Origin: an uncultured Candidatus Saccharibacteria bacterium
Lineage (GTDB): Bacteria; Patescibacteriota; Minisyncoccia; Phycocordibacterales; UBA5272
DNA length: 62,226 nucleotides
Assembly (NCBI GenBank): GCA_964577655.1
Contig: CAZNZR010000001.1
Coordinates: 1 to 62,226, forward strand
Direction: 5' to 3'
Shown here: positions 1-35,419 of the stretch, piece after piece
Position numbering within the stretch: position 1 is the first letter of the stretch
Layout: each line of letters starts with the position of its first letter
The notes under the pieces: model-generated
Databases searched by the model: none
What the model was told of the DNA's origin: nothing
What the model saw: the letters and a program-made list of their open reading frames with translations, nothing else
Program-made: the position numbers and the translations under genes

Positions 1-1814
1 TTCGAATATATCACATGCGCATAAAAGAAGGAGAGAAAAAATTAGAAAAAGTAAGTATTCATCTTAATGAGATAGAATTACTTCGTAGAGAAAATACTCC
101 GCATCTTAACTTCCTAAAGAAGCAAGTAAAAGAATTAGAAAAAAGAGAAGAAGAGATAAGATCTGTATCTTCAATGTTAAAAATATATCTTGCGAGAGAA
201 AACTCAAATATTACAGAAAAAAGAAAAGAGCTTTCTACTCATAATGTGGAAGAGAAGATAATAAGTCTCGAAAAAGAATTAGAAGACTGTAAAGATTCTA
301 CTCTTGCAATAGACAATCTCGACACAAAAAATGAAAAAATATCTATAGAAAATAATCTAATAAGTATAAAAGAACAGTTACAAATAACTAGAAAAGAGAA
401 AGATATAATATATACAGAAAAAGTAAATCTGGAGCTAGAAATAAAATTCTTAAAAAAGAAAGAGGAGGAGATACTATCAAAAAATAATCTAGATATAGAA
501 CTCTTGAAGCAAGAGATAGAAAGCTACATCTTAGATAAAAAAGAATTTGAAGCTTTCCAGGGAGATAGAGAAAAATTGTGGCAGAACATATTCTCTCTCT
601 ATGAGAGTAGAAAATATGAAGAACTAGGAAAAAATCTAAATGACATAAAGAGCTTTGAAAATTCTTTCTGGGATAAATTACGAGGCCAAGAAAAAAATGA
701 TAATTCTAATAAAAAAGACAATAACTTCAAAGAAGAGATCTTATCATTAGAAGAAAAGTTAAAATTGAAAGAAGAAAAGCTTAAAATATTATTATCAGAA
801 ATAGAAAATTTAACCGAAAATTTAGATAAAAATACACAAAAAATACAGAAGTTTAATGAAGAAGAGAAAGAGTCATTTTATAAAAAAGATAATAAGATAC
901 TTTCGATAAAGCTAGAACTAGAAAAGCTATATTCTGAAAAAGAAAATACCAGACTAAAAGAAAATATAGTAAAAGCTGAAGAAGAAAATTTTGAAAATCT
1001 ACTTCGTGAGATGAGTGTGCTTATAGGGCATGCTGCTATGAACTATAAACATTTCAATGAGAATAATTTATCAGAAGAAGAAAAAGCTTATCTGATAATA
1101 AATCAACACGAGCTACTTAAAAAAATAGAAAGAAGTAAAATAAAAATAGAAGAAAGCGGCCTAATAAACGCTGGAGATATAATAGAAGAATATAAAAATC
1201 TCTCAGAAAGAGATTCTTTCTTAGAAAGAGAAATTCTTGATCTTAATAATTCAAAAAATAATCTAGAATCTCTAATAAGAGATCTCAAAGAATCTTTGCT
1301 AGCTGACTTTGATCTAGGGCTTCAAAAGATTAATTTTAATTTTAATAATTATTTTAATGAGATATTCTCTGGCGGTAGAGCTTCTCTGTCTTTAGAGAAG
1401 AAAGAATTAAAAATAAAAGAAGATCTAGAACTAGAAGAAGATGAGGAAAAAAAGAAAGAACCTGGTATAGAGATATCTGTCTCTCTTCCTGAGAAAAAAG
1501 TAAAAGATCTTCAGATGCTCTCTGGAGGAGAGAGAGCTCTCACCTCTATTGCTCTCATATTTGCTATGAGCTCTATCAATCATCCTCCATTTATGGTCTT
1601 AGATGAGACAGATGCGGCACTTGATGAAGCAAATGCACGAAAATATGGAAAGATGATTAAGAAGCTTTCAGAAAAATCAAAATTGTTAGTCATCACTCAT
1701 AATAGAGAGACTATGAACCAGTGTGATGTTCTCTATGGAGTAACTATCGGCGCTGAAGGTTGCTCAAAATTACTCTCTATCAGGTTCGACGAAGCTACAG
1801 AATTCGCAAAGTAA
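1..1814 (+). CDS. smc: Chromosome segregation protein SMC, C-terminal ~600 aa (5' end lies outside the window)
   Basis: The frame of ORF 15..1814 stays open to nt 3. A long K/E-rich coiled coil is followed by the SMC/ABC head: signature 'LSGGERALTSIALIFAM', Walker B/D-loop 'FMVLDETDAALD', 'LLVITHNRETM'. Confidence 0.9.
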   Translation, partial: RIYHMRIKEGEKKLEKVSIHLNEIELLRRENTPHLNFLKKQVKELEKREEEIRSVSSMLKIYLARENSNITEKRKELSTHNVEEKIISLEKELEDCKDSTLAIDNLDTKNEKISIENNLISIKEQLQITRKEKDIIYTEKVNLELEIKFLKKKEEEILSKNNLDIELLKQEIESYILDKKEFEAFQGDREKLWQNIFSLYESRKYEELGKNLNDIKSFENSFWDKLRGQEKNDNSNKKDNNFKEEILSLEEKLKLKEEKLKILLSEIENLTENLDKNTQKIQKFNEEEKESFYKKDNKILSIKLELEKLYSEKENTRLKENIVKAEEENFENLLREMSVLIGHAAMNYKHFNENNLSEEEKAYLIINQHELLKKIERSKIKIEESGLINAGDIIEEYKNLSERDSFLEREILDLNNSKNNLESLIRDLKESLLADFDLGLQKINFNFNNYFNEIFSGGRASLSLEKKELKIKEDLELEEDEEKKKEPGIEISVSLPEKKVKDLQMLSGGERALTSIALIFAMSSINHPPFMVLDETDAALDEANARKYGKMIKKLSEKSKLLVITHNRETMNQCDVLYGVTIGAEGCSKLLSIRFDEATEFAK

Positions 1815-1829
1815 AAATACTTTACTATT

Positions 1830-1858
1830 TTGCATAAAATAAAATCTTAGTGTATACT
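1830..1858 (+). promoter_or_regulatory. Candidate sigma70-type promoter for topA (TTGCAT-N17-TATACT)
   Basis: TTGCAT at 1830-1835, exact 17-nt spacer, TATACT at 1853-1858. A second TGcTATAAT lies at about 1862-1870. About 85 nt upstream of the topA ATG. Confidence 0.45.
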
Positions 1859-1944
1859 CCTGTGCTATAATGAAAAGACTAATATATTTTTAGAAATTAT
1901 TTTTCTAAAAATTTGTGCGTTTAATTTATTTTAAATAACTTTTT

Positions 1945-4155
1945 ATGAAATTACTTATTGTAGAATCTCCAAGTAAAGCAAAAACTATAGAAAAATATCT
2001 CGGAGGAGATTATACTGTTCGTGCATCTATTGGTCACATTAGAGACTTGCCAAAATCTAATAAAAAAGCAGTGGATGTTGAAAATGGATTTGTCCCGACT
2101 TATGAGATAAGTAAAGGAAAAGAAAAAGTAATAAGTGAAATAAAATCTTTAGCTAAAAAAGCAAGTGAAATAATATTAGCAACTGACCAGGATCGTGAAG
2201 GAGAAGCCATAGCTTGGCATCTAGGAGAAGTATTAAATATAAAAAATCCAAAGAGAATTACTTATAATGAGATAACGAAGGAAGCTATACTAGAAGCCTT
2301 GAAGCATACAAGAGGTATAGATCTCAATCTAAAAGAAGCGCAAGAAGCAAGAAGAGTGCTAGACAGACTTGTAGGCTACGATCTATCAGGAATAATTTGG
2401 AAAAAGGTACGCTATGGACTCTCTGCAGGAAGAGTACAATCTCCTGCGCTACGCATAATAATGGAAAGAGAGCGAGAAATAAGAAATTTTATACCTGTAA
2501 AATACTTCAACATTTTTGCGGAGCTTGAGACTGTTGGTAAATTAAAAGAATCTAAAAAATATAAATTAGTATTTGAATGTGAGTTAGAGCCAGGACTAAA
2601 GCCAGAATTAGAAAGCCAAGAAGCTAAAGCTCTCTCAGAAAAAATTGTCCAAGAAGGTAAGGCTGGAAAATGGTACATAAAAGACGTAAAAGAGACTAAT
2701 GCAAAATCTAGCCCTCGCCCGCCATTTACAACTTCAACATTACAACAAACTGCTTCTAGTAGACTAGGCTTTGCACCAAAGAAAACAATGATGCTCGCAC
2801 AAAAATTATACGAAAAAGGATTTATCACTTATATGCGTACAGACTCTACTAATTTAGCATCTTCCGCTATTACTGAAATATCTTCTCTAATAACTAAAAA
2901 ATATGGAAAAGAATATTTAGAAACTAGAGCCTATAAAGCAAAATCTAAAAATGCACAGGAAGCTCATGAGGCTATTCGCCCAACACATGCTAGCACTCTA
3001 TCAGTAGGAACAAATTCTGATGAAAAAAGGCTCTATGATCTAATCTGGTCTCGCACTGTAGCAAGTCAAATGAGCGACGCAAAACTACTTCGAACAAAGA
3101 TACTAACAAATATTCAAAATAAAAAAGATTATCCTGATTTTTCTATAAATGGGTCTATAGTATTATTTGATGGGTGGCTAAAAGTTGATCCCGACGGAAA
3201 AGGAGAAGATATAAATCTTCCCAAACTTTCAAAAGATGAAAATCTAAACTTGCTTGCTATAAATAGTGTAGAAAAAGAGACTTTACCACCAGGTAGATAT
3301 TCTGAGGCAAGCCTTATAAAAGAATTGGAAAAAAGAGATATAGGAAGACCTTCGACTTACGCCTCTATAATCTCTACTATAGAAGATAGAGGCTATGTAG
3401 AAAAAATAAATAAAGCACTTTATCCTACAGATACTGGAGAGGTCGTCTCTGATTTTCTGGAAAAGAATTTTGCAAAATATATATCGGATGATTTTACAAA
3501 AGAAATGGAAAACGAACTAGATGATATAGCAAGCGGTAAGCTTACATACAAAAAATTATTAACAGATTTTTATAAACCATTTCAAAAAGAAGTTAAAGAA
3601 AAAGAAAAAATGGAAAAACAAAACAATCTAGGCGAAGCTCCAGATGAGATAAAATGTGGAAAATGTGGATCAAAAATGATAGTCAAATTATCAAAAGGAG
3701 GTAAATTCTACTCTTGTTCTCGATTCCCTGATTGCAGTGGAGCCAGGACACTCTCCGGAGATATATTGGAAGGACCAAAGGACACTGGTAAGATATGCCC
3801 AAAATGTGAAAAAGGTAGACTCATAGAAAGAGAAGGAAGATTTGGTAAATTTGTCGCCTGCTCAAATTATCCAAAATGTAAATATATAGAGCAAAGTGAA
3901 GAAGAAAAACAAAAGAAAAATACTGGTATAAAGTGTAATAAATGTGATACTGGATATATGGAAGAGAGAAGAGGAAGATTTGGAGTGTTCTATTCTTGCT
4001 CCAATTATCCTGAATGTAAAAATGCCATTAAAGCAAAGCCGACTGGAAACTATTGCAAAATGTGTGGAGAGATGATGATGGAAGGTACTAAAACTATCCC
4101 AGAGCGTTGTTCTTCTAAATCCTGCCCAAATCATAATCCGCATAAAATAAAATAA
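1945..4155 (+). CDS. topA: DNA topoisomerase I
   Basis: TOPRIM N-terminus 'LLIVESPSKAKTIEKYLG' and 'DQDREGEAIAWH'. Active-site region 'GFITYMRTDST'. Four C-terminal CxxC...CxxC zinc ribbons ('CGKCGS..CSRFPDC', 'CPKCEKG..CSNYPKC', 'CNKCDTG..CSNYPEC', 'CKMCGE'). Confidence 0.95.
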   Translation: MKLLIVESPSKAKTIEKYLGGDYTVRASIGHIRDLPKSNKKAVDVENGFVPTYEISKGKEKVISEIKSLAKKASEIILATDQDREGEAIAWHLGEVLNIKNPKRITYNEITKEAILEALKHTRGIDLNLKEAQEARRVLDRLVGYDLSGIIWKKVRYGLSAGRVQSPALRIIMEREREIRNFIPVKYFNIFAELETVGKLKESKKYKLVFECELEPGLKPELESQEAKALSEKIVQEGKAGKWYIKDVKETNAKSSPRPPFTTSTLQQTASSRLGFAPKKTMMLAQKLYEKGFITYMRTDSTNLASSAITEISSLITKKYGKEYLETRAYKAKSKNAQEAHEAIRPTHASTLSVGTNSDEKRLYDLIWSRTVASQMSDAKLLRTKILTNIQNKKDYPDFSINGSIVLFDGWLKVDPDGKGEDINLPKLSKDENLNLLAINSVEKETLPPGRYSEASLIKELEKRDIGRPSTYASIISTIEDRGYVEKINKALYPTDTGEVVSDFLEKNFAKYISDDFTKEMENELDDIASGKLTYKKLLTDFYKPFQKEVKEKEKMEKQNNLGEAPDEIKCGKCGSKMIVKLSKGGKFYSCSRFPDCSGARTLSGDILEGPKDTGKICPKCEKGRLIEREGRFGKFVACSNYPKCKYIEQSEEEKQKKNTGIKCNKCDTGYMEERRGRFGVFYSCSNYPECKNAIKAKPTGNYCKMCGEMMMEGTKTIPERCSSKSCPNHNPHKIK

Positions 4156-4193
4156 AGCCTTGCCAAAATATTTATTAATGTTATCATTAATAA

Positions 4194-5732
4194 ATGACTG
4201 ATACTCATGTAGAACCAAATAAGACATTTCTATCCCCTACTATAGATGAGATATTTTCTGCTGTTCCTATAAATAGACATTTTAACACTCTTGAAAAGAG
4301 ACTCATAGAAAAAGCTTATAATTTCTCTAAAGAAGCTCATGAGGGACAACTAAGAAATTCTGGAGAGCCCTACTTCAATCACTGCGTACAGACGACAATA
4401 AATATTGCAAAGCAAAATATGGATATTGATACTATAATCGCTGGACTTCTTCATGACTCTCTAGAAGATACAAAAGTATCTAAAGAAGAAATAGAAAAAG
4501 AATTTGGAAAAGATGTATTATTTTTAATTGAAGGAGTGACGAAGCTTGGGACAATAAAATATAAAGGTGTTGAGAGGCATGTAGAAAGTATGCGTAAATT
4601 CTTTATAGCGATGGCTGAGGATATAAGAGTTGTAGTGATTAAGCTTTGTGATAGACTTCACAATGTATCAACTCTAGAATATCTAAGAGAAGATAAGAGA
4701 AAAAGAATTGCTATCGAGACTCTAGAAATACACGCTAGACTCGCAGATCGTATAGGTATGGGAAAACTCAAAAGCCAATTAGAAGATAAAGCTTTCCCTT
4801 ACGCTTTTCCAGAAGATTATAAGAAAGTGAAAGATATGTTCGAGGCTACCAAGTCAGCATCTGAGGATTATCTATTAAAAATCTTAGAAAAAGTAAAAGA
4901 GGAATTAAATATTTTTAATATAAAATATTTAAAAATAGATCATAGACTTAAACATCTTTATTCTCTATATGAGAAATTAAAAAGAAACAATTGGGATATC
5001 CAAAAAATATATGACATAGCTGCTATGCGTATAATAGTTGAAGACATGTCTACTTGCTATCAAGTACTTGGAATAATACATGGCCTTTATAAGCCAGTAC
5101 CAGGAAGATTCAAGGATTATATAGCAATACCGAAGCCAAACGGCTATCAATCTCTTCATACTACTGTATTTGATGGAGAAGGAGGGACTTTTGAGGTGCA
5201 GATAAGAACAGAAAAGATGCATATAGAAGCCGAATATGGTATAGCCTCTCATCTACTATATAAAGAAATTGGAGACACAAAAAAAGCTAAAAATCAAAAA
5301 GAAAAAAACAAAATAAATAATCTAAAAGAAAAAGTTTCCTGGACTAAAGATCTTTTAAAAATGCAAGAGAATACGGAAGAAAATAAAAATTATCTAAAAA
5401 ATCTAAAGGAAGAATTCTTAAGCCAGAGAATATTCGTACATACTCCAAAAGGAGATATAATAGAATTACCCAACGGTGCCGGAGTACTTGATTTTGCTTA
5501 TACTGTACACTCAGACATTGGTAATCATGTATCAAGTGTAATGGTAAATGGTAAATTAGTATCCTTAGAGACTAAATTAAAAAATAGAGACATAGTAGAA
5601 ATTCACACAAAAGAAGAAGCAAAACCTACTCGTAAATGGCTAGATTATGCTTTTACATCTCTAGCAAAAAGACATATTAGAAATTATCTAAAAGAGAATG
5701 GCGGTACTATAGATAAATTTTTTATAAGCTAA
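4194..5732 (+). CDS. rel: Bifunctional (p)ppGpp synthetase/hydrolase, RelA/SpoT homologue (short form: HD + synthetase + TGS only)
   Basis: HD hydrolase motif 'LLHDSLEDT'. Synthetase motifs 'RFKDYIAIPKPNGYQSLHTTV' and 'EVQIRTEKMHIEAEYGIASHLLYKE'. TGS 'VHTPKGDIIELPNGAGVLDFAYTVHSDIG'. The protein ends about 60 aa after the TGS domain. Confidence 0.9.
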   Translation: MTDTHVEPNKTFLSPTIDEIFSAVPINRHFNTLEKRLIEKAYNFSKEAHEGQLRNSGEPYFNHCVQTTINIAKQNMDIDTIIAGLLHDSLEDTKVSKEEIEKEFGKDVLFLIEGVTKLGTIKYKGVERHVESMRKFFIAMAEDIRVVVIKLCDRLHNVSTLEYLREDKRKRIAIETLEIHARLADRIGMGKLKSQLEDKAFPYAFPEDYKKVKDMFEATKSASEDYLLKILEKVKEELNIFNIKYLKIDHRLKHLYSLYEKLKRNNWDIQKIYDIAAMRIIVEDMSTCYQVLGIIHGLYKPVPGRFKDYIAIPKPNGYQSLHTTVFDGEGGTFEVQIRTEKMHIEAEYGIASHLLYKEIGDTKKAKNQKEKNKINNLKEKVSWTKDLLKMQENTEENKNYLKNLKEEFLSQRIFVHTPKGDIIELPNGAGVLDFAYTVHSDIGNHVSSVMVNGKLVSLETKLKNRDIVEIHTKEEAKPTRKWLDYAFTSLAKRHIRNYLKENGGTIDKFFIS

Positions 5733-6933: not shown

Positions 6934-7014
6934 GCCGAAGTGGTGGAATGGTATACACGTGCGACTCAAAATCGCATGCCTCACGGCTTGTGGGTTCAAG
7001 TCCCACCTTCGGCA
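6934..7014 (+). tRNA. tRNA-Leu (anticodon CAA), type II with long variable arm
   Basis: Folded by hand. Acceptor GCCGAAG/CTTCGGC plus discriminator A. Anticodon stem TGCGA/TCGCA with loop CTCAAAA (CAA at 6967-6969). Variable arm GCC-TCAC-GGC. T arm GTGGG-TTCAAGT-CCCAC. No encoded CCA. Confidence 0.9.
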
Positions 7015-7024
7015 CAAGAATAAT

Positions 7025-8980: not shown

Positions 8981-9060
8981 TTTAAAAGAATTTTTTAAAT
9001 TAAAAAATTATTTACAAACAACTATATAAGTATATCACAATCAATCTTCTTTGTCAATAG

Positions 9061-9087
9061 AAAAAACCGCCCTTTTGAGAGCGGTTT
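9061..9087 (-). terminator. Intrinsic terminator downstream of ORF 9108..9707
   Basis: On the minus strand: AAACCGC-loop-GCGGTTT followed by TTTTTT (reverse complement of the A-run at 9061-9066). Confidence 0.6.
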
Positions 9088-9107
9088 CGCAACTAGTTTT
9101 TCTTTTT

Positions 9108-9707
9108 CTATTTTTCAGGCTTATATACCATCCCAAGCTGAAGAAGCTGGGACTCTTTGGTAAAATCATATCCTACTGAAGTATAAAAAGAAAAGTTTTT
9201 ATTTACTTTTCCTGTATACTTCACATTACCAATGTGTTGAGCCACATTGTCTAAGTAATGTATGAGAGTATATGCTCCAGAAAAATTTTTGCTGGCTGTG
9301 ATAGTCCCTTGCTGAACTGAAAAAAAGAATCTTGGCCTTATTTCTACTTTATTTGCTGGGTCACCAAAGCCATATCCTACCCAACTAAAGATTCCGAAAA
9401 ATTTTGTTGGATTCCAAATAAATTGACCAGAAGCATACGGCACATTGTACCAGTACCCTCCATTCACTCCAGCAGAAATGGTTTTGGAAATTTTCCTGAG
9501 ATATGTAATCTCAAGATCATCACTGCTCAGTGTGAGCATGAGTGATGATTTTTTATTTTCCAAAGTAGCATAGCCATACAGGCCGGAGGCAACTGCTCCT
9601 TTACCTGAAGCCACCTCAACTGAAGACAGCTTCATAGTGTCTTTCTGGGCGTTTGCAAGATAAAAAGAAAAAAGAATTACAAAAAACAATAAAAAATACT
9701 TTTTCAT
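9108..9707 (-). CDS. Secreted beta-strand-rich protein, possible small beta-barrel/OMP-like protein
   Basis: Signal peptide 'MKKYFLLFFVILFSFYLANA/QKD'. G/Y/F/S-rich sequence with alternating hydrophobicity throughout ('SFYTSVGYDF', 'LLQLGMVYK'). Visibly more GC-rich than the flanks. Its own terminator. Confidence 0.6.
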   Translation of the reverse strand: MKKYFLLFFVILFSFYLANAQKDTMKLSSVEVASGKGAVASGLYGYATLENKKSSLMLTLSSDDLEITYLRKISKTISAGVNGGYWYNVPYASGQFIWNPTKFFGIFSWVGYGFGDPANKVEIRPRFFFSVQQGTITASKNFSGAYTLIHYLDNVAQHIGNVKYTGKVNKNFSFYTSVGYDFTKESQLLQLGMVYKPEK

Positions 9708-25098: not shown

Positions 25099-26157
25099 CT
25101 ATCCCATTATCCCTCCACCAATTAGTATATTATTTTTATAAAAAACTAATGATTGTCCTTTTGTGTATATTATGCTCCTTTCACCTTTAAAATAGTCGAA
25201 TTCTATTTCAAGCTCTTTCGCTTTCTTTTTTTCTTTTATACTCTTTATTTTTATTTTTACTAGATTTGCATGATATCTCTCTGCTATAGAATATATATTC
25301 CCTTTCTCTAAGCTCTTTAATAGATTAATATTTTCAAGAAAAATCTTATTTTCTTTTTGTGCTTTCAAATTTTCTGAGACATATAAAATATTAGTTTTTA
25401 TATCTTTATTAATAATATATTTACCGTTAATCTTTTCACCTATCGTATAAAAAAATACGCCATCATGCTCTCCAATATTTTTATTAAAATCAATATCTGT
25501 TATATTACCCTTTTTATTCTTTATAAATTCTTTTAGAAAATCTTTCACATCTATCTTACCGATAAAGCATAGCCCTTGAGAATCTTTTTTCTTTGCTGTG
25601 GCTAGATTATTTTTGAGAGCGATATCTCTAATTTCTGATTTTAATAGATGACCTACTGGAAATATTATTTTAGAAAGTTGCTTTTTATTAAGTGTCCAAA
25701 GGAAATAGCTTTGATCTTTAGTGAGATCTTTTCCTTTTTGTAAATTCTCATCTTTTATTTGTGCATAATGACCTGTGGCCACATAATCAGCTCCATTCTT
25801 GAGTGCCCAATCTAAAAACGCTCCAAATTTTACTTCTTTATTACAAAATACATCCGGATTTGGTGTGCGACCAGCTTTGTATTCCCTTATCATGTAGTCT
25901 ATTACTCCTTCTTTGTATTCTTTTTCCAGATCAAGAGTAATAAAAGGGATCTCTAGCTCACTACACACTCTCATAGCGTCCCTTCTATCTTCTTTCCATG
26001 TACATTCAATAAAATCAGGCTGCCAGACTTTTATAAATACTCCAGTCACATCATATCCTTTTTGCTTCAACAATAAGGCAGCAACAGAAGAATCCACTCC
26101 TCCCGACATTCCTACAAATACTTTTTTCTTTTTATTCTTTGAATTATTTTTTTGCAT
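25099..26157 (-). CDS. mnmA: tRNA-specific 2-thiouridylase
   Basis: PP-loop 'VGMSGGVDSSVAALLL', 'TPNPDVFCNKEVKF', 'ATGHYA', 'KDQSYFL', 'DSQGLCFIG'. Confidence 0.93.
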   Translation of the reverse strand: MQKNNSKNKKKKVFVGMSGGVDSSVAALLLKQKGYDVTGVFIKVWQPDFIECTWKEDRRDAMRVCSELEIPFITLDLEKEYKEGVIDYMIREYKAGRTPNPDVFCNKEVKFGAFLDWALKNGADYVATGHYAQIKDENLQKGKDLTKDQSYFLWTLNKKQLSKIIFPVGHLLKSEIRDIALKNNLATAKKKDSQGLCFIGKIDVKDFLKEFIKNKKGNITDIDFNKNIGEHDGVFFYTIGEKINGKYIINKDIKTNILYVSENLKAQKENKIFLENINLLKSLEKGNIYSIAERYHANLVKIKIKSIKEKKKAKELEIEFDYFKGERSIIYTKGQSLVFYKNNILIGGGIMG

Positions 26158-26158
26158 T

Positions 26159-26713
26159 TTAACTTGCTCTCATTAACTTTTTATACACTTCTACCAGAGC
26201 TCTCGTATCAGCGAGTGCGGTATGCGCTTTTGCATTTTCTACTTTTAATAATTCACACAAAAACTTTAAAGAGAATTTATCAGCTTGTGGCGCATCATAA
26301 AGTCTAGCAAAAGCGATAGAAATGGTATCGAGCTTTCCATAGTGCATATTATTTTCAACTCCGGTCTTCTGATAAGCCTTAGCTACAAAATTATAATCAA
26401 AAACTAAATTATGAGAAACAAAAGTACAACTTTCTGCTTTTTTATTAAAATCTTCTAAAACATTTTTAAGTGGAGAAGCAAAAATCCAATCGGCTTCATT
26501 GTATCCATTGATACGAAGTGCTTCTTCTTCTGCTAGATCAAGTCTTTCCGGCTTTATCTTCCATTCGTATTCGCCTAATATTTCTATACTAGGACCCTTA
26601 CCTTCTCTTTCTATTTGTTTTACAACAATAAGAGCGAGCTCTATTATTTCATGTTTTTCAAAATCTGTACCCGTAGTCTCCACATCTACAAATGCTAAAT
26701 TGTGTACTTTCAT
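26159..26713 (-). CDS. DEDD-family 3'-5' exonuclease (DnaQ/epsilon-like)
   Basis: ExoI 'FVDVETTG', ExoII 'FVSHNLVFDYNF', ExoIII 'HTALADTRAL'. Confidence 0.8.
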   Translation of the reverse strand: MKVHNLAFVDVETTGTDFEKHEIIELALIVVKQIEREGKGPSIEILGEYEWKIKPERLDLAEEEALRINGYNEADWIFASPLKNVLEDFNKKAESCTFVSHNLVFDYNFVAKAYQKTGVENNMHYGKLDTISIAFARLYDAPQADKFSLKFLCELLKVENAKAHTALADTRALVEVYKKLMRAS

Positions 26714-27972: not shown

Positions 27973-29490
27973 CTAAACAGGAAGATTTGCTGGAGAAGAG
28001 GACTTTACAGAATCAACACGAGGAAGAGTAGGGGTAGCAGCTACCTCACCTGGGAAATGATATAAAGTTGCGAGTTCTTCAACATTTAAAATAAAGCCTC
28101 CCTTGTTCATTGTAGGCTTGAATGGATGAATAAGAATATTATATAGATTCATAGCGAAAGACTTTTTATAACTAGCAAAAGGATAAAATATATTATCAAA
28201 TAGTTTTTCTTTTTCGTCACTCATACCTTTCACAAGAGAAAAGAGTCCGCTTCTTCCCTTATATCCACCATAAAGATTTTCTTTTCGCCAAGGCACATAT
28301 CTCTTAAAAGGATCTTGCCAAGGATAGTCAAAAGGGTCAGCTACATAACCAGGAACAAAAGTGTTAAACCCGTCTTCATTAAATGGCCTAACGAGCCCCA
28401 TTACCATAGGTATTCTACTTCCAAAATTATCATATGAGTCAGCCATATATATAGTCCTCATAATACAAATAACTTGTGGCTTACTAATCTTTCTTTGTAT
28501 AAGCTCTATATTTTTCTTTGCGTCATCTTCTCTCTCTTGAACTGGAATTGATTTATTAGTTACTATATCCATCGAATATTCTAATTCGTTGCCATCTTTA
28601 TCTTTTTTAGAGTTGCCCCACTCATCTTTCTCATTAGCACCCTTCTTTTTTAATATCGGCTTCTTTTTAAATCTGTCTATCTCTATTTTGACTAGATCTT
28701 TTATGGTCTTCTTTCCTTCAGTCTTGCCTCCCTTTTTTTTACCACCATTGATATCTATACTATATATATCATTCCATTTATTTGCGTCTCTTATTATTAT
28801 CTGGTGGAAAAAATACTCTCCCTTACCTATAGCTCCCATCTGCTCTATAAGATAAGTAAGAGGATCATGCTTAAATATTTCTTTAGGATCTTTATCTAGC
28901 CCCCAATCCTTATAAGTCTTTATTGGATACATATCAGCTGTATAAGTATATTTATCTATTTTATTTTCTTTCTCATCTCCAACTTCTAGATCTTCAGTCT
29001 TTTTCACAAGATTCCAAGTTGTACCCCAAAATGCTGGCATCTTTTTATCATTATGGTCTATTTTTATAGGAACATTATTCATATAATCTTCTTTCGTCTC
29101 CACTATCTCTACTGTTGGATATTGAGAATAAATAGCAGCTTCTACTCTTGGCTTAAATTTCTTTTCTACTCTGATATAAAAATGTATTACTCCTTCTAGA
29201 GAAGCTATTTCTAGTGATGCAGTATTCGGCATAGCGCCAAGCCAATTCTCTTTTCTCCAATTACCAAGACCTCCTCCTTCAATAAGACTTCTCAAAAATA
29301 ATTCTGTAGCTTCTGGGCTCTTATTAATTTCTCTCGGTAGCTTAATTTCTAAGAATACCCAATCTAGCTTTTTCTGATAATCAGTATTTATATAAAGCAT
29401 CCAAAATTTCCATGTCCACGCTAAAAGAAGAGTAAAAAGTGCACAATAAATTAAAAATAATCCTATATCTATTATTAACTGAAGACTCAT
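27973..29490 (-). CDS. Conserved-looking membrane protein of unknown function (505 aa)
   Basis: N-terminal TM segment(s). Blocks 'FLEIKLPREINKSPEATELFLRSL', 'ASLEIASLEGVIHFYIRV', 'AAIYSQYPTVEIVE'. C-terminal 'ELATLYHFPGE'. No NTP-binding motif. Confidence 0.6.
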   Translation of the reverse strand: MSLQLIIDIGLFLIYCALFTLLLAWTWKFWMLYINTDYQKKLDWVFLEIKLPREINKSPEATELFLRSLIEGGGLGNWRKENWLGAMPNTASLEIASLEGVIHFYIRVEKKFKPRVEAAIYSQYPTVEIVETKEDYMNNVPIKIDHNDKKMPAFWGTTWNLVKKTEDLEVGDEKENKIDKYTYTADMYPIKTYKDWGLDKDPKEIFKHDPLTYLIEQMGAIGKGEYFFHQIIIRDANKWNDIYSIDINGGKKKGGKTEGKKTIKDLVKIEIDRFKKKPILKKKGANEKDEWGNSKKDKDGNELEYSMDIVTNKSIPVQEREDDAKKNIELIQRKISKPQVICIMRTIYMADSYDNFGSRIPMVMGLVRPFNEDGFNTFVPGYVADPFDYPWQDPFKRYVPWRKENLYGGYKGRSGLFSLVKGMSDEKEKLFDNIFYPFASYKKSFAMNLYNILIHPFKPTMNKGGFILNVEELATLYHFPGEVAATPTLPRVDSVKSSSPANLPV

Positions 29491-30726: not shown

Positions 30727-33700
30727 CTAAATAACTATATTTATCAGCCTATTTTTGACGATTATAATTTTCTTAATTTGCGCTTCACTAGTAATATATT
30801 TTTGATACACTTCTGTACTTTTTACCGATTCTTCCACTTCTTCATCACTACTATCTGGCTTTATAATAAAAGTCCCTCTCATTTTTCCTGAAATCTGTAT
30901 ACTCATCTCTATCTCTTCTTTTTTAATTTTTGATACATCTACTTCTGGCCATTCTGATAAATGAACAGAGATTTTATTCTCTAAAATATTTTGATATATC
31001 TCTTCAGAGATATGCACTGCAAATGGAGAAAGTATCTGGATAAATTTAGTGAAAGTATTTTTAGATATACTATTACCCTTCTTGATCTCTTCTTCAAAAG
31101 TATTGAGGCAGATCATAAGCTGAGCTATAGCAGTATTGAATCCGAATTTTTCTATATCTTCACCGACTTTTTTGATAGTCTCATTTATGATCCTTTCTGT
31201 TTCTTTACTGTCTTCTACCTCTTCATTTAAATTTATTTTTTCTGCGAGACTGTAAACTCGTTCTAAAAATCTAGATACTCCTGCCATGCTATTTGTATTC
31301 CAAGCAATAGACTTTTCAAATGGACCCATGAACATCTCATAAGTTCTCATCGCATCACATCCATATTCTTTTATCACATCATCTGGATTTACTACATTAC
31401 CATATCTTTTGCTCATCTTCTTACCATCTTCGGCCATGATTAATCCTACAGTTTGTAATTTAGAAAATGGTTCATCGTAATTTACGAGTCCTTTATCAAA
31501 TAAAAATTTATGCCAAAATCTAGCGTATATCAGATGACGAGTAGCATGCTCTGCACCTCCTACATAAAAGTCTACAGGACTCCACTCCTTTTCTAATTCT
31601 TTATTTACAAATTTTTCATCATTCTTTGGATCAATATATCTGAGGTAATACCAAGAGCTTCCCGCCCATTGCGGCATAGTATTTGTCTCTCTAAAGAATT
31701 TTTTGATTTCTAAATTCTTATTCTTTTTAGCTAAAACATTTATCCATTTATTATTTTCTAAATAAGTAATCTTCTCTATTTCAAATCCAAATTTTTCTAG
31801 AATATTTTTTAATTCATTTTCATTGTAAAATGAAAAGAATCTATATCCCCCTTTTCTTTCCTCTTCCAGTTCACCTTCTCCATTTTTTAGTCTTAGATAT
31901 AGATAGCCATTATCATTTAAAGCTAAATTAATTTTAGTTATAATTTTTTCGAAATTATATCTTTCAGAATGTAATAATGATGCCATAGATAAGACTCCAT
32001 CATATTTTTCATTATGAAAATCGTCTAATAGCGGATCAATTTTTATAAATTCAAGACCTTTATCTATATTTATTTTAGAAAATGAATCTACAATATCTGA
32101 AGCAATAATATCAACTCCTTCATTTTTAAGATAACTAGCATCTCTACCGGAAGCAGAACCAATCTCTAAAACTTTTTTTCCTTTTAATTTTTCCACAATA
32201 AAATCAGATTCCTCTTTCCATTCTCCAGATACTTCTTGTACTGTTTCTGAAATATATGTCTCAAAATTTTCCTTATATGTATTTATAGTTTTTAATTCTC
32301 TCTCAGAATGAGCTCCAGATATACTTTCAAATTCTCCTTCATTATTTATAAATCCATAAACTTCTACCCAATCTTTTATATTTGAAAGTGGAGACTCTCC
32401 ATTATCCGTCGGCTCATAATTTTCTACATTTGGAAGAATTACAGGTAAATCTTTATCAGCTACCGCATAACTTTTCCTGTTCTCATCAAACACAATAGGA
32501 AATGGTTCTCCCCAATATCTCTGCCGCGCAAATACCCAATCTTTCAATTTATATTTTGAAACTTCTTTACCATCAACATGACCAACTATTTCGGGTATAG
32601 CGTCTTCTGATAATAATCCATTAACCCATGAGGCAGAATTATAAACTTTTCCATATCCTGTATATATTTTATCTATAGGTTCACCTATTGGTCTTTCTAT
32701 TACATCCCTAATCTCCAAATTATATTTCTTCGCGAATTCATAATCTCTCTCATCGTGAGCTGGTACAGCCATGATTGCGCCAGTACCATAGTCACTCAAA
32801 ATATAATTCGCAATATAAATTGGAACTTCTTCTCCATTCGCAGGATTGATAGCTTTAATACCTGTATCAATTCCTTCTTTTTCTAATTTAGACATGTCAA
32901 AGTCTATCGTCCTCTCTTTTTCTTCTTGCTCTAGCTTTATTATAAATTTCTTTATATCATCACTCGCATCCCAGCCATTCTCTATCCACTCTTTTGCGAG
33001 ATTGTAGGATATAGCCATAAATGTACAACCAAACAAAGTGTCAGCACGAGTTGTAAAGACTTTTAAAAATAAAGGCTGAAATCTATAAACATAAACAATA
33101 GATTCATTTGTAACATAATCTCCGTAATATTTTTTATATCTTTCCAATCTTTCTTCTATAGAATTATCTTTTTCATGTCCAGGATAATCTAAGGGTAATT
33201 CTCCTAATTTAAATTCTGAGATTTCTATTATTCTAGCTTTAGTAAATTCTTTTTGGTTTTCCTGCTTTCCATCTGCCCAATCGATTAGACTTACAACGTC
33301 CCCGACAATGATATTCTTTTTTTCTCCAATTCTAAAAGTGACATTCTTTTTTCCTTCTTTAATTAAAGAAACTAATTCTGGTCTAAATTTAAATGATTCT
33401 AAATTAATACTTCCTTCAACTTTAATCTGAAAATCTATTTCACTTCCTTCACTTTTTCCAATCCAATTTCTCTGAAGCTCTTTAATATGTGACTCCCAAT
33501 TAAGTTTATCAAGATCAGCTAAAAGTCTATCAGCATAATCTGTGATACGAATAGTCCATTGTCTTAATTTTTTCTTTTCTACAATTGTACCGCAACGCTC
33601 ACAAGTATTACCATCAAGATCTTCGTTCGCAAGTCCAGTCTTGCAAGTAGGACACCAATTAATAGGATCAAATGATTCATAGGCTAGCCCATCTTTATAC

Positions 33701-34146
33701 ATCTGCTTCCACATCCATTGTGTCCATTTATAATATTTTGGATCAGTAGTATTTATTTCACGATCCCAATCATAATTAAGCCCGAGCATCTCTATTTGCT
33801 CTTTATATCTTGCTACATTTTTACTTGTAGCGATATTAGGATTAATTTTATTTTTTATAGCAAATTGCTCTGCAGGAAGTCCAAATGCGTCCCAGCCCAT
33901 AGGGTGAAGTACATTGTATCCTTGCATCTTTTTCATTCTAGAGTATACATCTGTAGCAATATATCCTTTTGGATGACCAACGTGAAGTCCTTCACCTGAT
34001 GGATAAGGAAACATATCAAGAATATAAAATTTACCTTTTGTACTAGAAAAGTCATTAGAGGTCTTGTTGGTCCCGTTCTCCTTCCAAAACTTCTGCCACT
34101 TTTTTTCTATTTCGCTATAGTCTAATTTTGAATTTAATTTGGTCAT
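30727..34146 (-). CDS. leuS: Leucyl-tRNA synthetase carrying two large in-frame insertions (ASCH-like and SAM-methyltransferase-like)
   Basis: HIGH 'HVGHPKGY', KMSKS 'KKMSKRYGN'. Editing motifs 'TTRADTLFG' and 'GTGAIMAVPAHDERDYEFAKKY'. 'RETNTMPQWAGSSWYYLRY'. At 1139 aa it is far longer than the roughly 800-870 aa I recall as typical for bacterial LeuRS. Confidence 0.95.
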   Translation of the reverse strand: MTKLNSKLDYSEIEKKWQKFWKENGTNKTSNDFSSTKGKFYILDMFPYPSGEGLHVGHPKGYIATDVYSRMKKMQGYNVLHPMGWDAFGLPAEQFAIKNKINPNIATSKNVARYKEQIEMLGLNYDWDREINTTDPKYYKWTQWMWKQMYKDGLAYESFDPINWCPTCKTGLANEDLDGNTCERCGTIVEKKKLRQWTIRITDYADRLLADLDKLNWESHIKELQRNWIGKSEGSEIDFQIKVEGSINLESFKFRPELVSLIKEGKKNVTFRIGEKKNIIVGDVVSLIDWADGKQENQKEFTKARIIEISEFKLGELPLDYPGHEKDNSIEERLERYKKYYGDYVTNESIVYVYRFQPLFLKVFTTRADTLFGCTFMAISYNLAKEWIENGWDASDDIKKFIIKLEQEEKERTIDFDMSKLEKEGIDTGIKAINPANGEEVPIYIANYILSDYGTGAIMAVPAHDERDYEFAKKYNLEIRDVIERPIGEPIDKIYTGYGKVYNSASWVNGLLSEDAIPEIVGHVDGKEVSKYKLKDWVFARQRYWGEPFPIVFDENRKSYAVADKDLPVILPNVENYEPTDNGESPLSNIKDWVEVYGFINNEGEFESISGAHSERELKTINTYKENFETYISETVQEVSGEWKEESDFIVEKLKGKKVLEIGSASGRDASYLKNEGVDIIASDIVDSFSKINIDKGLEFIKIDPLLDDFHNEKYDGVLSMASLLHSERYNFEKIITKINLALNDNGYLYLRLKNGEGELEEERKGGYRFFSFYNENELKNILEKFGFEIEKITYLENNKWINVLAKKNKNLEIKKFFRETNTMPQWAGSSWYYLRYIDPKNDEKFVNKELEKEWSPVDFYVGGAEHATRHLIYARFWHKFLFDKGLVNYDEPFSKLQTVGLIMAEDGKKMSKRYGNVVNPDDVIKEYGCDAMRTYEMFMGPFEKSIAWNTNSMAGVSRFLERVYSLAEKINLNEEVEDSKETERIINETIKKVGEDIEKFGFNTAIAQLMICLNTFEEEIKKGNSISKNTFTKFIQILSPFAVHISEEIYQNILENKISVHLSEWPEVDVSKIKKEEIEMSIQISGKMRGTFIIKPDSSDEEVEESVKSTEVYQKYITSEAQIKKIIIVKNRLINIVI

Positions 34147-34281: not shown

Positions 34282-34932
34282 ATGGAAATCTATCTTGGTG
34301 CCAGTATGGCAATCCTTGCAGAAATCATAGGGCTAGGCCCTGCTGAAAACGAAAAGTTTGCTGCTTATCTAGGTTTTGTAAAAAGAGAAAATTATCTGCC
34401 ACCTTTAGTTGTACAAACGGAATGTGGTGAGGTATTTGTTTGCGAATTTAATTCTGGAGAATTCCAGGATTCTCCAGACGGTGTTAAATTTGAAAAGAGC
34501 TACATTACACCTCAAGATTTTCAAAAAACTAACATGGAATATCTATTGGGGCGTTTATTGAAAGATAAAAAACAAATACATTTCAACTTAGGAGAATCTT
34601 GGGATGAGGAAAGATTTTTTTCGTGGAGATCAGAGGTGCCGGATTACATTAATTCCTTATCAAAGGATATTTTATCTACAGCAATAACACTAACGGACGG
34701 ATATGAAATAGCTAGGCGAATGGAATTACTTTACGAATTAGAGTTATTTGAAAGAATCTACAGAAATACAAAAGAAGATGAGATTTATGCGGATTGGAAA
34801 TCAGGGAGAAAAGATTCTTTGGAAATCATTTACAAGCAAATACCCTGGCTATATCAAAAAGAAATCGACAAAAATAAAAATGTTGGGTTCTCAAATAAAA
34901 AGCCGAGTTTAGATTTCTATGATAAAAGTTAG
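34282..34932 (+). CDS. Hypothetical cytoplasmic protein (216 aa), monocistronic
   Basis: Intact ORF between a candidate promoter and a clean terminator. I recognise no motif. Confidence 0.55.
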   Translation: MEIYLGASMAILAEIIGLGPAENEKFAAYLGFVKRENYLPPLVVQTECGEVFVCEFNSGEFQDSPDGVKFEKSYITPQDFQKTNMEYLLGRLLKDKKQIHFNLGESWDEERFFSWRSEVPDYINSLSKDILSTAITLTDGYEIARRMELLYELELFERIYRNTKEDEIYADWKSGRKDSLEIIYKQIPWLYQKEIDKNKNVGFSNKKPSLDFYDKS

Positions 34933-35038: not shown

Positions 35039-35419
35039 ATGAAAAATAAACTAGAAAAGTTTGCTTTAAAAATTATAAAGAACATAGGTTCTGTTTGGTC
35101 TATTGTTATTCATACTGTAATATTTCTATTTTTTATAATTCTAATATTACTGGGATACAATGCAGAAAAGGTGATGCTTATACTCACTACGATAGTCTCA
35201 CTAGAAGCTATATATTTATCTCTTTTTATTCAGATGACTGTAAATAAACACTCAGAACACATAGAAGATATCAGTGAAGATATTGATGATATTCAGGAAG
35301 ATATTGAAGAGATCAGTGAAGATGTGGATGATATTCAAGAAGATATCGATGAGATGCAAGAAGATATTGAAGAATTAAGTGAAGAAGAGGTAGAGACAAA
35401 CAAAAAAGCCAGTGACTAG
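35039..35419 (+). CDS. Small 2-TM membrane protein (DUF1003 / low-affinity iron-permease-like core) with an acidic repeat tail
   Basis: 'IGSVWSIVIHTVIFLFFII' and 'LTTIVSLEAIYLSLFIQMTVNKH' resemble the DUF1003 core. The C-terminus is three 14-aa E/D-rich repeats. Confidence 0.6.
   Translation: MKNKLEKFALKIIKNIGSVWSIVIHTVIFLFFIILILLGYNAEKVMLILTTIVSLEAIYLSLFIQMTVNKHSEHIEDISEDIDDIQEDIEEISEDVDDIQEDIDEMQEDIEELSEEEVETNKKASD
35264..35389 (+). repeat. 3 x 42-nt imperfect tandem repeat (coding; EDISEDIDDIQEDI / EEISEDVDDIQEDI / DEMQEDIEELSEEE)
   Basis: Units start at 35264, 35306 and 35348. Units 1 and 2 differ at only a few positions. Confidence 0.85.

Follow-up and report, generated by a model that had tools for sequence, protein, structure and literature searches.

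ASCH domains are defined by the octapeptide G-x-K-x-x-[E/T/S]-x-R; the 'GKER' form is the commoner one, and the 'GKTR' form, with Thr, defines the enzymes of the YqfB type (bioRxiv 10.64898/2026.02.27.708502). In YqfB, the substitutions K21A, T24A and R26A inactivate the enzyme, E74A slows it 100- to 1000-fold and Y89A about 3-fold, and Asp27 and His70 are 100% conserved within the YqfB clade (PMC6972931). All 19 ASCH proteins tested are reported to lower the amount of N4-acetylcytidine (ac4C) in tRNA, the Lys and the Glu/Thr of the octapeptide being essential for this deacetylation; tRNA is bound neither by YqfB nor by isolated ASCH domains, the archaeal members binding it via a fused helix-turn-helix (HTH) domain (bioRxiv 10.64898/2026.02.27.708502). 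Here we describe a GKTR-type ASCH domain that is nested in the leucyl-tRNA synthetase (LeuRS) of an uncultured Candidatus Saccharibacteria bacterium (GTDB lineage Patescibacteriota; Minisyncoccia; Phycocordibacterales; UBA5272). The stretch of DNA that was analysed, called the window below, comprises the 62,226 nucleotides of contig CAZNZR010000001.1 (assembly GCA_964577655.1), and the nested domain is encoded on its minus strand at 33067..33417.

The closest described system is the N4-acetylcytidine amidohydrolase YqfB of E. coli (PDB 1TE7, 9KYF-9KYH), with which the insert shares the fold, the GKTR octapeptide, the set of Lys, Thr, Arg, Glu and Tyr residues and the size of about 105-117 aa. 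The two differ in that their identity is 21-28%, Asp27 and His70 are unmatched, the insert fails the equivalog cut-off for YqfB, belongs to a separate Patescibacteria clade and contains an extra loop (DWADGKQENQKEF), and is nested in a synthetase, whereas YqfB is free-standing. In architecture, the nearest analogues are archaeal proteins of the ASCH + HTH type (AAAD_HTH), reported as tRNA ac4C erasers, in which ASCH domains, GKTR members included, are likewise covalently joined to a tRNA-binding module (bioRxiv 10.64898/2026.02.27.708502). The partner there is a small C-terminal HTH, whereas here it is a whole class Ia synthetase; the ASCH domain is nested in it, and the protein belongs to the candidate phyla radiation (CPR) and is known from sequence. 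The NCBIfam entry NF040702 ('isoleucine--tRNA ligase, N-acetyltransferase domain-containing'), compared by its family name, is a named precedent for an acetyl-handling domain in a class Ia synthetase. The LeuRS insert differs from it in being a predicted ASCH hydrolase rather than a GNAT, in lying within the CP1 domain itself and in varying by strain and by site. Finally, free-standing ASCH proteins of Patescibacteria (for example P0284 from a Paceibacterota metagenome-assembled genome, 48% identical in local BLAST) resemble the insert in the GxKxxT[WFI]R, GHE and YYG motifs and in length; they have genes of their own, while the copy in the window, having neither a start nor a stop codon left, is made as a segment of LeuRS.

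The literature searched contained no description of an ASCH, NUDIX or methyltransferase domain nested in LeuRS or isoleucyl-tRNA synthetase (IleRS), or of strain-level exchange of such domains. Searches on acetylcytidine together with Patescibacteria and on LeuRS insertions in CPR gave nothing relevant, and the search on IleRS with GNAT returned only an unrelated biosynthesis paper.

Position of the insertion in LeuRS

The host of the insert is the housekeeping LeuRS gene (30727..34146, minus strand), an open reading frame (ORF) of 1139 aa. The protein scored 916.4 bits against the bacterial LeuRS model TIGR00396 (NCBIfam; cut-off 548.4) and matched LeuRS crystal structures at E = 4.6e-177. 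The HIGH-type motif HVGH, the KMSK motif, T366 of FTTRADT and D465 of AHDERD all fall in columns that are invariant across 74 relatives. With its motifs for both synthesis and editing intact, the host enzyme looks fully functional.

The sequence-only reading had placed an insertion of about 115 residues at 33073-33417 (LeuRS aa 244-358), at the entrance to the CP1 editing domain. Alignment to Thermus thermophilus (Tt) LeuRS (1h3n), the spacing of landmarks in related LeuRS and the translated flanks all confirmed this insertion. Query residues 11-242 aligned to Tt 7-237 and residues 361-590 to Tt 243-476, so that about 117-118 residues (aa 244-360) take up a place that only 5 fill in the Thermus enzyme. 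NWIGKSEG and FTTRADT lie 24-29 aa apart in those of the 120 closest LeuRS that have no insert, against 136 aa in the window protein. Directly upstream of the insert lies the first strand of the CP1 hairpin (KSEGSEIDFQIKV, aa 231-243; 33418..33456, minus strand), which aligns to Tt LeuRS through residue 237. The second strand with the Thr-rich editing motif (FLKVFTTRADT, aa 360-370; 33037..33069, minus strand), aligned from Tt residue 243, follows directly downstream. The Pfam editing-domain profile PF13603 picks up again at its position 23 at LeuRS aa 361, and the remainder of the CP1 domain (aa 361-523; 32578..33066, minus strand) matched it with 180.7 bits. In a full-length AlphaFold2 model, confident beta-strands at aa 231-243 and 360-365 bracket the insert. 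The location can thus be given more closely than as an entrance to CP1: the insert extends from the tip of the first CP1 beta-hairpin, inside the editing domain itself, and the Thr-rich editing motif follows a few residues downstream.

The reading frame runs unbroken through the insert and is intact in five independent assemblies; the insert recurs in three further independent assemblies (P0002-P0004; 85% identity) and in a Paceibacterota genome from GTDB (L014; 73% identity). A chance or assembly artefact is ruled out by the continuous frame, by this recurrence and by the match to the Pfam ASCH family described below. The junctions read KV/EGS and PLF/LKV. A Pfam scan revealed no Hint or intein domain in LeuRS, and a repeat check found no repeat marking both boundaries of the insert, the sole nearby repeat being a 9-nt sequence (GAAGGAAGT, EGS codons) that occurs twice on the upstream side only. 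An intein or homing element was therefore rejected.

Identity of the nested domain

The insert matched Pfam ASCH (PF04266; threshold 21.2 bits) over LeuRS aa 253-359, with 34.2 bits when the whole protein was scanned and 40.5 bits for the segment by itself, the latter at E = 4.7e-10 over positions 2-102 of the 103 in the profile. The same family was matched by 75 of 75 members of the insert's own family, and the profile built from these (alignment A1) matched YqfB structures over the full length (9kyf, E = 1.5e-10; 1te7, E = 2.9e-10). The AlphaFold2 model of the insert had a mean predicted local distance difference test score (pLDDT) of 85 and a predicted template modelling (TM) score of 0.72. 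Its best Foldseek match was YqfB 9kyf, with a probability of 1.0 and a TM score of 0.77-0.79 when target-normalised and 0.68-0.70 when query-normalised. All 21 Foldseek matches with E < 0.01 were ASCH-fold structures, YqfB, PH0355, 3s9x, EF3133 and ZmASCH being at the top. A word-index homology search with the insert alone returned zero matches, though the protein itself is in the database searched; we read this as a limit of sensitivity.

These results establish the segment as a true ASCH domain of the YqfB type (GKTR), inserted in frame in the CP1 hairpin of the housekeeping LeuRS of a member of Paceibacterota (CPR). Both the ASCH/PUA-like module and the YqfB-like layout that had been proposed from the letters of the sequence are borne out. 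With Asp27 and His70 of YqfB unmatched and the cut-off of the YqfB equivalog missed, the insert is a putative YqfB-like enzyme domain of a separate GKTR clade and not an ortholog of YqfB.

Catalytic signature and selection

The ASCH octapeptide of the insert, GKKNVTFR (aa 265-272; 33331..33354, minus strand), was identified by translation and alignment to YqfB and has the GKTR form, with G265, K267, T270 and R272 at the defining positions. In the profile alignment, K267, T270, R272, E325 and Y341 correspond to K21, T24, R26, E74 and Y89 of YqfB; the match of E325 and Y341 to E74 and Y89 comes from the sequence alignment and not from a three-dimensional superposition. E325, the counterpart of the proposed general acid, belongs to a GHE motif (aa 323-325; 33172..33180, minus strand), and Y341 is encoded at 33124..33126 (minus strand).

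Across the 75 sequences of A1, the columns K24 and Y98 (K267 and Y341 in LeuRS numbering) are invariant, and F11, T27, R29 and F113 (F254, T270, R272 and F356) are conserved in at least 90%. The Lys, Thr and Arg of the octapeptide are invariant in an alignment of 12 sequences comprising 11 synthetase-embedded copies and one free-standing relative. The GHE motif is kept in the ASCH clade of the window and in an IleRS-embedded copy, but not in a second LeuRS-embedded clade.

Comparison of the window with locus L002 gave a ratio of nonsynonymous to synonymous substitution rates (dN/dS) of 0.075 in the ASCH segment, as against 0.074 in the N-terminal catalytic core and 0.056 in CP1. Purifying selection thus constrains the ASCH segment as strongly as it does the synthetase core. 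An isoelectric point (pI) of 5.56 makes the domain acidic, which speaks against an intrinsic RNA-binding role. Of the two functions proposed earlier, RNA binding or deacylation, the second is the one for which the residues are kept.

Insertion sites across CPR LeuRS

Landmark spacing and domain mapping were applied to the 120 nearest LeuRS, all of which appear to be from CPR, the few with source names being from Paceibacterota or Parcubacteria. Three permissive sites were recognised: site A, the CP1 hairpin; site B, late in CP1 between AHDERD and KDWVFARQRYWG; and site D, just before RETNTMPQWAG. No insert was detectable in 56 of the 120 proteins, and 42 have a NUDIX domain at site B only. ASCH occupies site A in six LeuRS and site D in four, to which P0030 is added, a protein that the landmark script left unplaced but that carries an insert matching the site-D copies in sequence. 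Three proteins have a methyltransferase at site D and two an alpha/beta-hydrolase at site A; these counts overlap where combinations occur. NUDIX is the commonest fellow insert, nested late in CP1 in about half of the 120 LeuRS, some of which have two. The LeuRS P0113 (1286 aa) also bears endonuclease-like domains (PF04480 and PF18741). P0144, a 916-aa LeuRS with ASCH at site A, represents a 90%-identity cluster of 246 member sequences from many contigs and several sources, so that ASCH-bearing LeuRS are abundant in at least one lineage.

The second insert of the window protein is a nested class I S-adenosylmethionine-dependent methyltransferase at site D (aa ~591-818; 31693..32376, minus strand), which matched Methyltransf_23 with 47-51 bits and replaces Tt residues 477-492; it is context for the ASCH module and not a part of it. 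The sequence-only reading had raised the co-occurrence of the two inserts as a question, and the survey answers it in the negative: only one of the 11 ASCH-bearing LeuRS among the 120, the window protein, has the methyltransferase too, the other two methyltransferase-bearing LeuRS carry NUDIX and not ASCH, and ASCH at site A combined with a methyltransferase at site D is found in the window protein alone. The methyltransferase is also absent from the L001 allele described below and from L002. The cassette recurs with the same junction peptide (NGAHSERELKTI...) in P0029, there alongside NUDIX. In PADLOC the cassette also matched mad2 (E = 7e-11), which belongs to a methylation-associated defence system; this match probably comes from the general likeness of methyltransferases to one another.

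Exchange among strains and a second host

At locus L001 (Logan DRR379934), from a conspecific strain, more than 8 kb of flanking DNA agrees with the window at 98.4-99.2% identity. Its LeuRS gene (1443-4430) is identical in nucleotides to that of the window in codons 1-120 and 808-1007 and falls to 84-95% identity in the central block; it encodes NUDIX at site B and lacks both ASCH and the methyltransferase. Such a mosaic marks the replacement of one allele by another through homologous recombination in conserved synthetase sequence. The nested ASCH is an autonomous accessory cassette, and whole alleles are swapped among strains via the conserved synthetase flanks. The suggestion that this LeuRS combines three activities, aminoacylation with editing, a methyltransferase and an ASCH module, is correct for the architecture of the window protein and fails as a fixed design, the combination being one interchangeable allele that L001 replaces with NUDIX. 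A further relative, P0024, is a partial sequence that reaches 95% identity to the window in its best local match, which covers 22% of the query; it has no domain-sized insert.

Between its RNase T gene and mnmA, L001 also has an additional RimL-like GNAT gene (9005-9568, 187 aa), which is absent from the corresponding place in the window (~26135-26159). In this single comparison, the GNAT is thus present in the strain without the ASCH allele.

Over larger distances, the cassette moves laterally between LeuRS backbones. The site-A ASCH of L014 (DALYDX01, Ca. Paceibacterota) is 73% identical to that of the window, the lineage-specific loop included, on a LeuRS backbone of 36-53% identity, while P0104 has a closer backbone (51-67%) and yet a site-A ASCH of another clade (34%). 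In a neighbour-joining tree without support values, the embedded ASCH domains fell into at least three groups, one of which occurs at both site A and site D.

A second host was found by a pattern scan based on an alignment of four sequences (A4). In L015 (CAZUDH010000001.1, uncultured Ca. Saccharibacteria), an ORF at 1832-5092 encodes an IleRS (TIGR00392, 801.6 bits; cut-off 621) with the same ASCH family nested in it (Pfam ASCH, 30.2 bits; GKTR, GHE and YYG motifs intact). The insert directly precedes WTTTPWTLP, and position 23 is where the editing-domain profile picks up again, as in LeuRS. The insertion point is therefore structurally homologous in LeuRS and IleRS, class Ia paralogues that here come from two CPR phyla.

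Free-standing relatives

When 1.84 billion representatives were searched exhaustively with HMMER, 180 relatives were retrieved at E <= 1e-3, mostly stand-alone proteins of 105-118 aa, which by their source names are ASCH proteins of Paceibacterota, Patescibacteria and Levybacteria. By these homology relations, we consider it established that the nested domain derives from a family of small, free-standing ASCH proteins of Patescibacteria.

The gene neighbourhoods of free-standing members could be read in nine independent contexts, in six of which the ASCH gene adjoins a gene for nucleotide house-cleaning or salvage. Three of these partners are NUDIX genes, arranged as HD_3 (YfbR-like nucleotidase) - NUDIX - ASCH in L003/L004, as ASCH - cupin - NUDIX in L008 and as NUDIX - ASCH with a 7-nt gap in L018. 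The others are an NTPase_I-T gene preceding ASCH (L019/L020), a phosphoribosyltransferase gene overlapping the ASCH gene that it follows (L016/L017) and an AAA_18 kinase-like gene following ASCH, with a SpoU methylase gene upstream (L005-L007). The contexts L009/L010 and L012/L013 were uninformative.

The remaining context, L011 (1480-4624), has the order MetRS - GNAT (RimL-like) - ASCH - TatD, with an overlap of 20 nt between the GNAT and ASCH genes. In other bacteria, the tRNA charged by MetRS carries ac4C34. The GNAT and ASCH of L011 could be a pair of acetyl writer and eraser beside MetRS.

Genomic setting of the host gene

The genes around LeuRS in the window are core chromosomal ones (rpoB, rpoC, sigA, dnaG, topA, uvrA, uvrB, gatB, relA/spoT, mnmA and nrdD). 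Two conserved ORFs without a Pfam family flank the LeuRS region, one of 505 aa at 27973-29490 (minus strand) and one of 216 aa at 34282-34932 (plus strand); both are syntenic in L001, and synteny with L002 is limited to the 505-aa ORF. A 126-aa protein encoded at 35039-35419 (plus strand) has an N-terminal membrane-like segment followed by a highly acidic repetitive tail (EDISEDIDDIQEDIEEISEDVDDIQEDIDEMQEDIEE), and the conserved neighbour in L001 gave merely faint matches to DUF1003 and DUF948.

The leucine-specific domain is absent from the window LeuRS (aa ~906-910, in the region 30727-31430), Tt residues 580-637 having no counterpart. The corresponding short C-terminal spacing is common to all 120 nearest LeuRS, whether they bear inserts or not.

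The only tRNA-Leu gene in the window, for tRNA-Leu(CAA) at 6934-7015 (plus strand), has G at position 12 and C34 as its wobble base. The eukaryote-type ac4C12 site is therefore not available in this isoacceptor.

Discussion

Since the catalytic residues of YqfB (Lys, Thr, Arg, Glu and Tyr) are kept in the nested domain under strong purifying selection, we infer that it is an active amidohydrolase. Its predicted reaction, like that of YqfB, would free cytidine or cytosine of an N4-acyl (acetyl) group. Physiologically, the module may clean up or recycle modified pyrimidine nucleosides, like its free-standing relatives, with LeuRS supplying only expression and a tolerant loop. Several lines of evidence lead us to this proposal: the neighbours of the free-standing genes, the acidity of the domain surface, the use of two LeuRS sites by the domain, its dispensability within the species, the high activity of YqfB-type enzymes on the free nucleoside, and the fact that the commonest fellow insert in LeuRS is NUDIX. 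Among the physiological roles weighed here it seems to us the most likely, and we hold it tentatively, at somewhat less than an even chance. For the reading as a whole, namely a nested YqfB-type ASCH cassette that acts as an N4-acyl-cytidine/cytosine amidohydrolase, with salvage favoured over a role on tRNA, we consider the chances evenly balanced.

A number of observations weigh against this reading. The YqfB equivalog model NF003443 (PRK04980) scored the insert at 13.4 bits, far below its cut-off of 93, so that the substrate could differ from ac4C. Asp27 and His70 of YqfB have no identical counterpart, an Ile following R272 and an Asp aligning to H70; the His of the insert's family lies three positions downstream of the H70 column. 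The neighbourhood evidence consists of the nine contexts only and concerns distant relatives (28-48% identity). If LeuRS is a mere carrier, it is left unexplained that the known hosts are all tRNA synthetases, and the same ASCH clade occupies the homologous hairpin before the Thr-rich motif in LeuRS and in the Saccharibacteria IleRS, a recurrence that favours a tRNA-linked role. Finally, in the full-length AlphaFold2 model (based on 74 LeuRS) the backbone is confident and the ASCH domain (aa 246-306) and the methyltransferase have pLDDT < 50, so the model does not show how the ASCH pocket is oriented towards the editing site or the tRNA path.

Some of these observations lend themselves to another explanation, in which the synthetase delivers its bound tRNA-Leu to the ASCH domain and the latter removes an N4-acetyl or other N4-acyl group from a cytidine of that tRNA. 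The reported deacetylation of tRNA by ASCH proteins and the dependence of the archaeal members on a fused binding module (bioRxiv 10.64898/2026.02.27.708502) provide a parallel, for the fused partner here is itself a tRNA-binding enzyme, and the catalytic K267 and T270 are present in a domain covalently joined to it. The shared clade at the homologous CP1 hairpin of LeuRS and IleRS and the MetRS - GNAT - ASCH cluster with its overlapping GNAT and ASCH genes point in the same direction. Position C12 is the eukaryotic ac4C site of tRNA-Leu. The G at position 12 of tRNA-Leu(CAA) tells against an erasing role and makes ac4C12 an unlikely target in this tRNA of the window; moreover, no ac4C writer was seen among the 20 larger ORFs scanned in the 62-kb window. 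The occupation of site D by ASCH in other LeuRS, the dispensability of the domain within the species, the company that the free-standing relatives keep with enzymes of free nucleotides and a geometry that the model leaves unreadable likewise count against it. On balance, we regard the erasure of a tRNA modification as possible, if on the unlikely side.

In a broader version of this idea, the class Ia synthetases of CPR (LeuRS and IleRS) might be docking platforms for laterally exchanged ASCH, NUDIX, methyltransferase and alpha/beta-hydrolase cassettes that vary by strain and that act on the held tRNA or aminoacyl-tRNA. We consider this rather doubtful. If it were true, tRNA repair or immunity (erasure of ac4C, or reversal of acylation damage by toxins or phages) would be built into the synthetase at the CP1 hairpin.

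An amidohydrolase for a different synthetase-linked amide was also considered, one that would undo the N-acetylation of Leu- or Ile-tRNA by a GNAT toxin or detoxify an acylated inhibitor of nucleoside type. The domain would then be a strain-variable protective cassette, and both the allele polymorphism at about 99% identity and the lateral transfer resemble what is seen at conflict-driven loci. The hosts LeuRS and IleRS have CP1 sites that bind aminoacylated 3' ends, a GNAT gene overlaps the free-standing ASCH gene in L011, and the GNAT of L001 is missing at that spot in the window. On the other side, the pocket residues match a hydrolase of cytosine N4-acyl groups, the GNATs look like RimL-type enzymes rather than known tRNA-acetylating toxins, and the GNAT pattern is one comparison that runs opposite to a simple pairing of writer and eraser. 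The ASCH insert had no match in viral contigs, phage genomes, plasmids or PADLOC, and a mobile-element, phage or defence origin is unsupported as well. We consider this explanation improbable.

Improbable too, in our view, is that the domain is a non-catalytic PUA-like RNA-binding add-on that helps to keep tRNA-Leu, say by its acceptor or CCA end, close to the editing site. The fold class of ASCH is PUA-like and the insert adjoins the Thr-rich editing motif, and an additional grip on the tRNA could compensate for the absent leucine-specific domain (the equivalent of Tt 580-637). This compensation was rejected, given that all 120 relatives are without that domain regardless of the insert. Pure binding would have no need of the catalytic Lys, Thr, Arg and Tyr, which are invariant in embedded copies that are only 30-85% identical; the acidity of the domain and the conspecific L001 allele without it also argue against the proposal. 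As for a functionless passenger, an assembly chimera or an intein-like selfish element, to which the dispensability of the insert and its position in an essential gene might point, the low dN/dS, the intact frame in five independent assemblies and the lack of Hint or intein Pfam matches and of flanking repeats at both boundaries leave hardly any room for it.

Conclusion

Bacterial aminoacyl-tRNA synthetases are usually regarded as architecturally fixed. The window provides an essential LeuRS with a second, and even a third, nested enzyme, the set of which differs between strains that are about 99% identical elsewhere. Current labels such as 'leucine--tRNA ligase' or 'class I tRNA ligase family protein' hide these nested domains. 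The LeuRS and IleRS described here constitute a natural experiment that identifies surface sites tolerating insertions of 110-230 residues, and the new context of ASCH, a family lately proposed to include tRNA ac4C erasers, offers in the nested copy a ready-made construct for testing whether a link exists between ASCH chemistry and a specific tRNA. If, as we favour, the module serves nucleoside salvage, it would show how genome-reduced, scavenging CPR bacteria package their house-cleaning enzymes.

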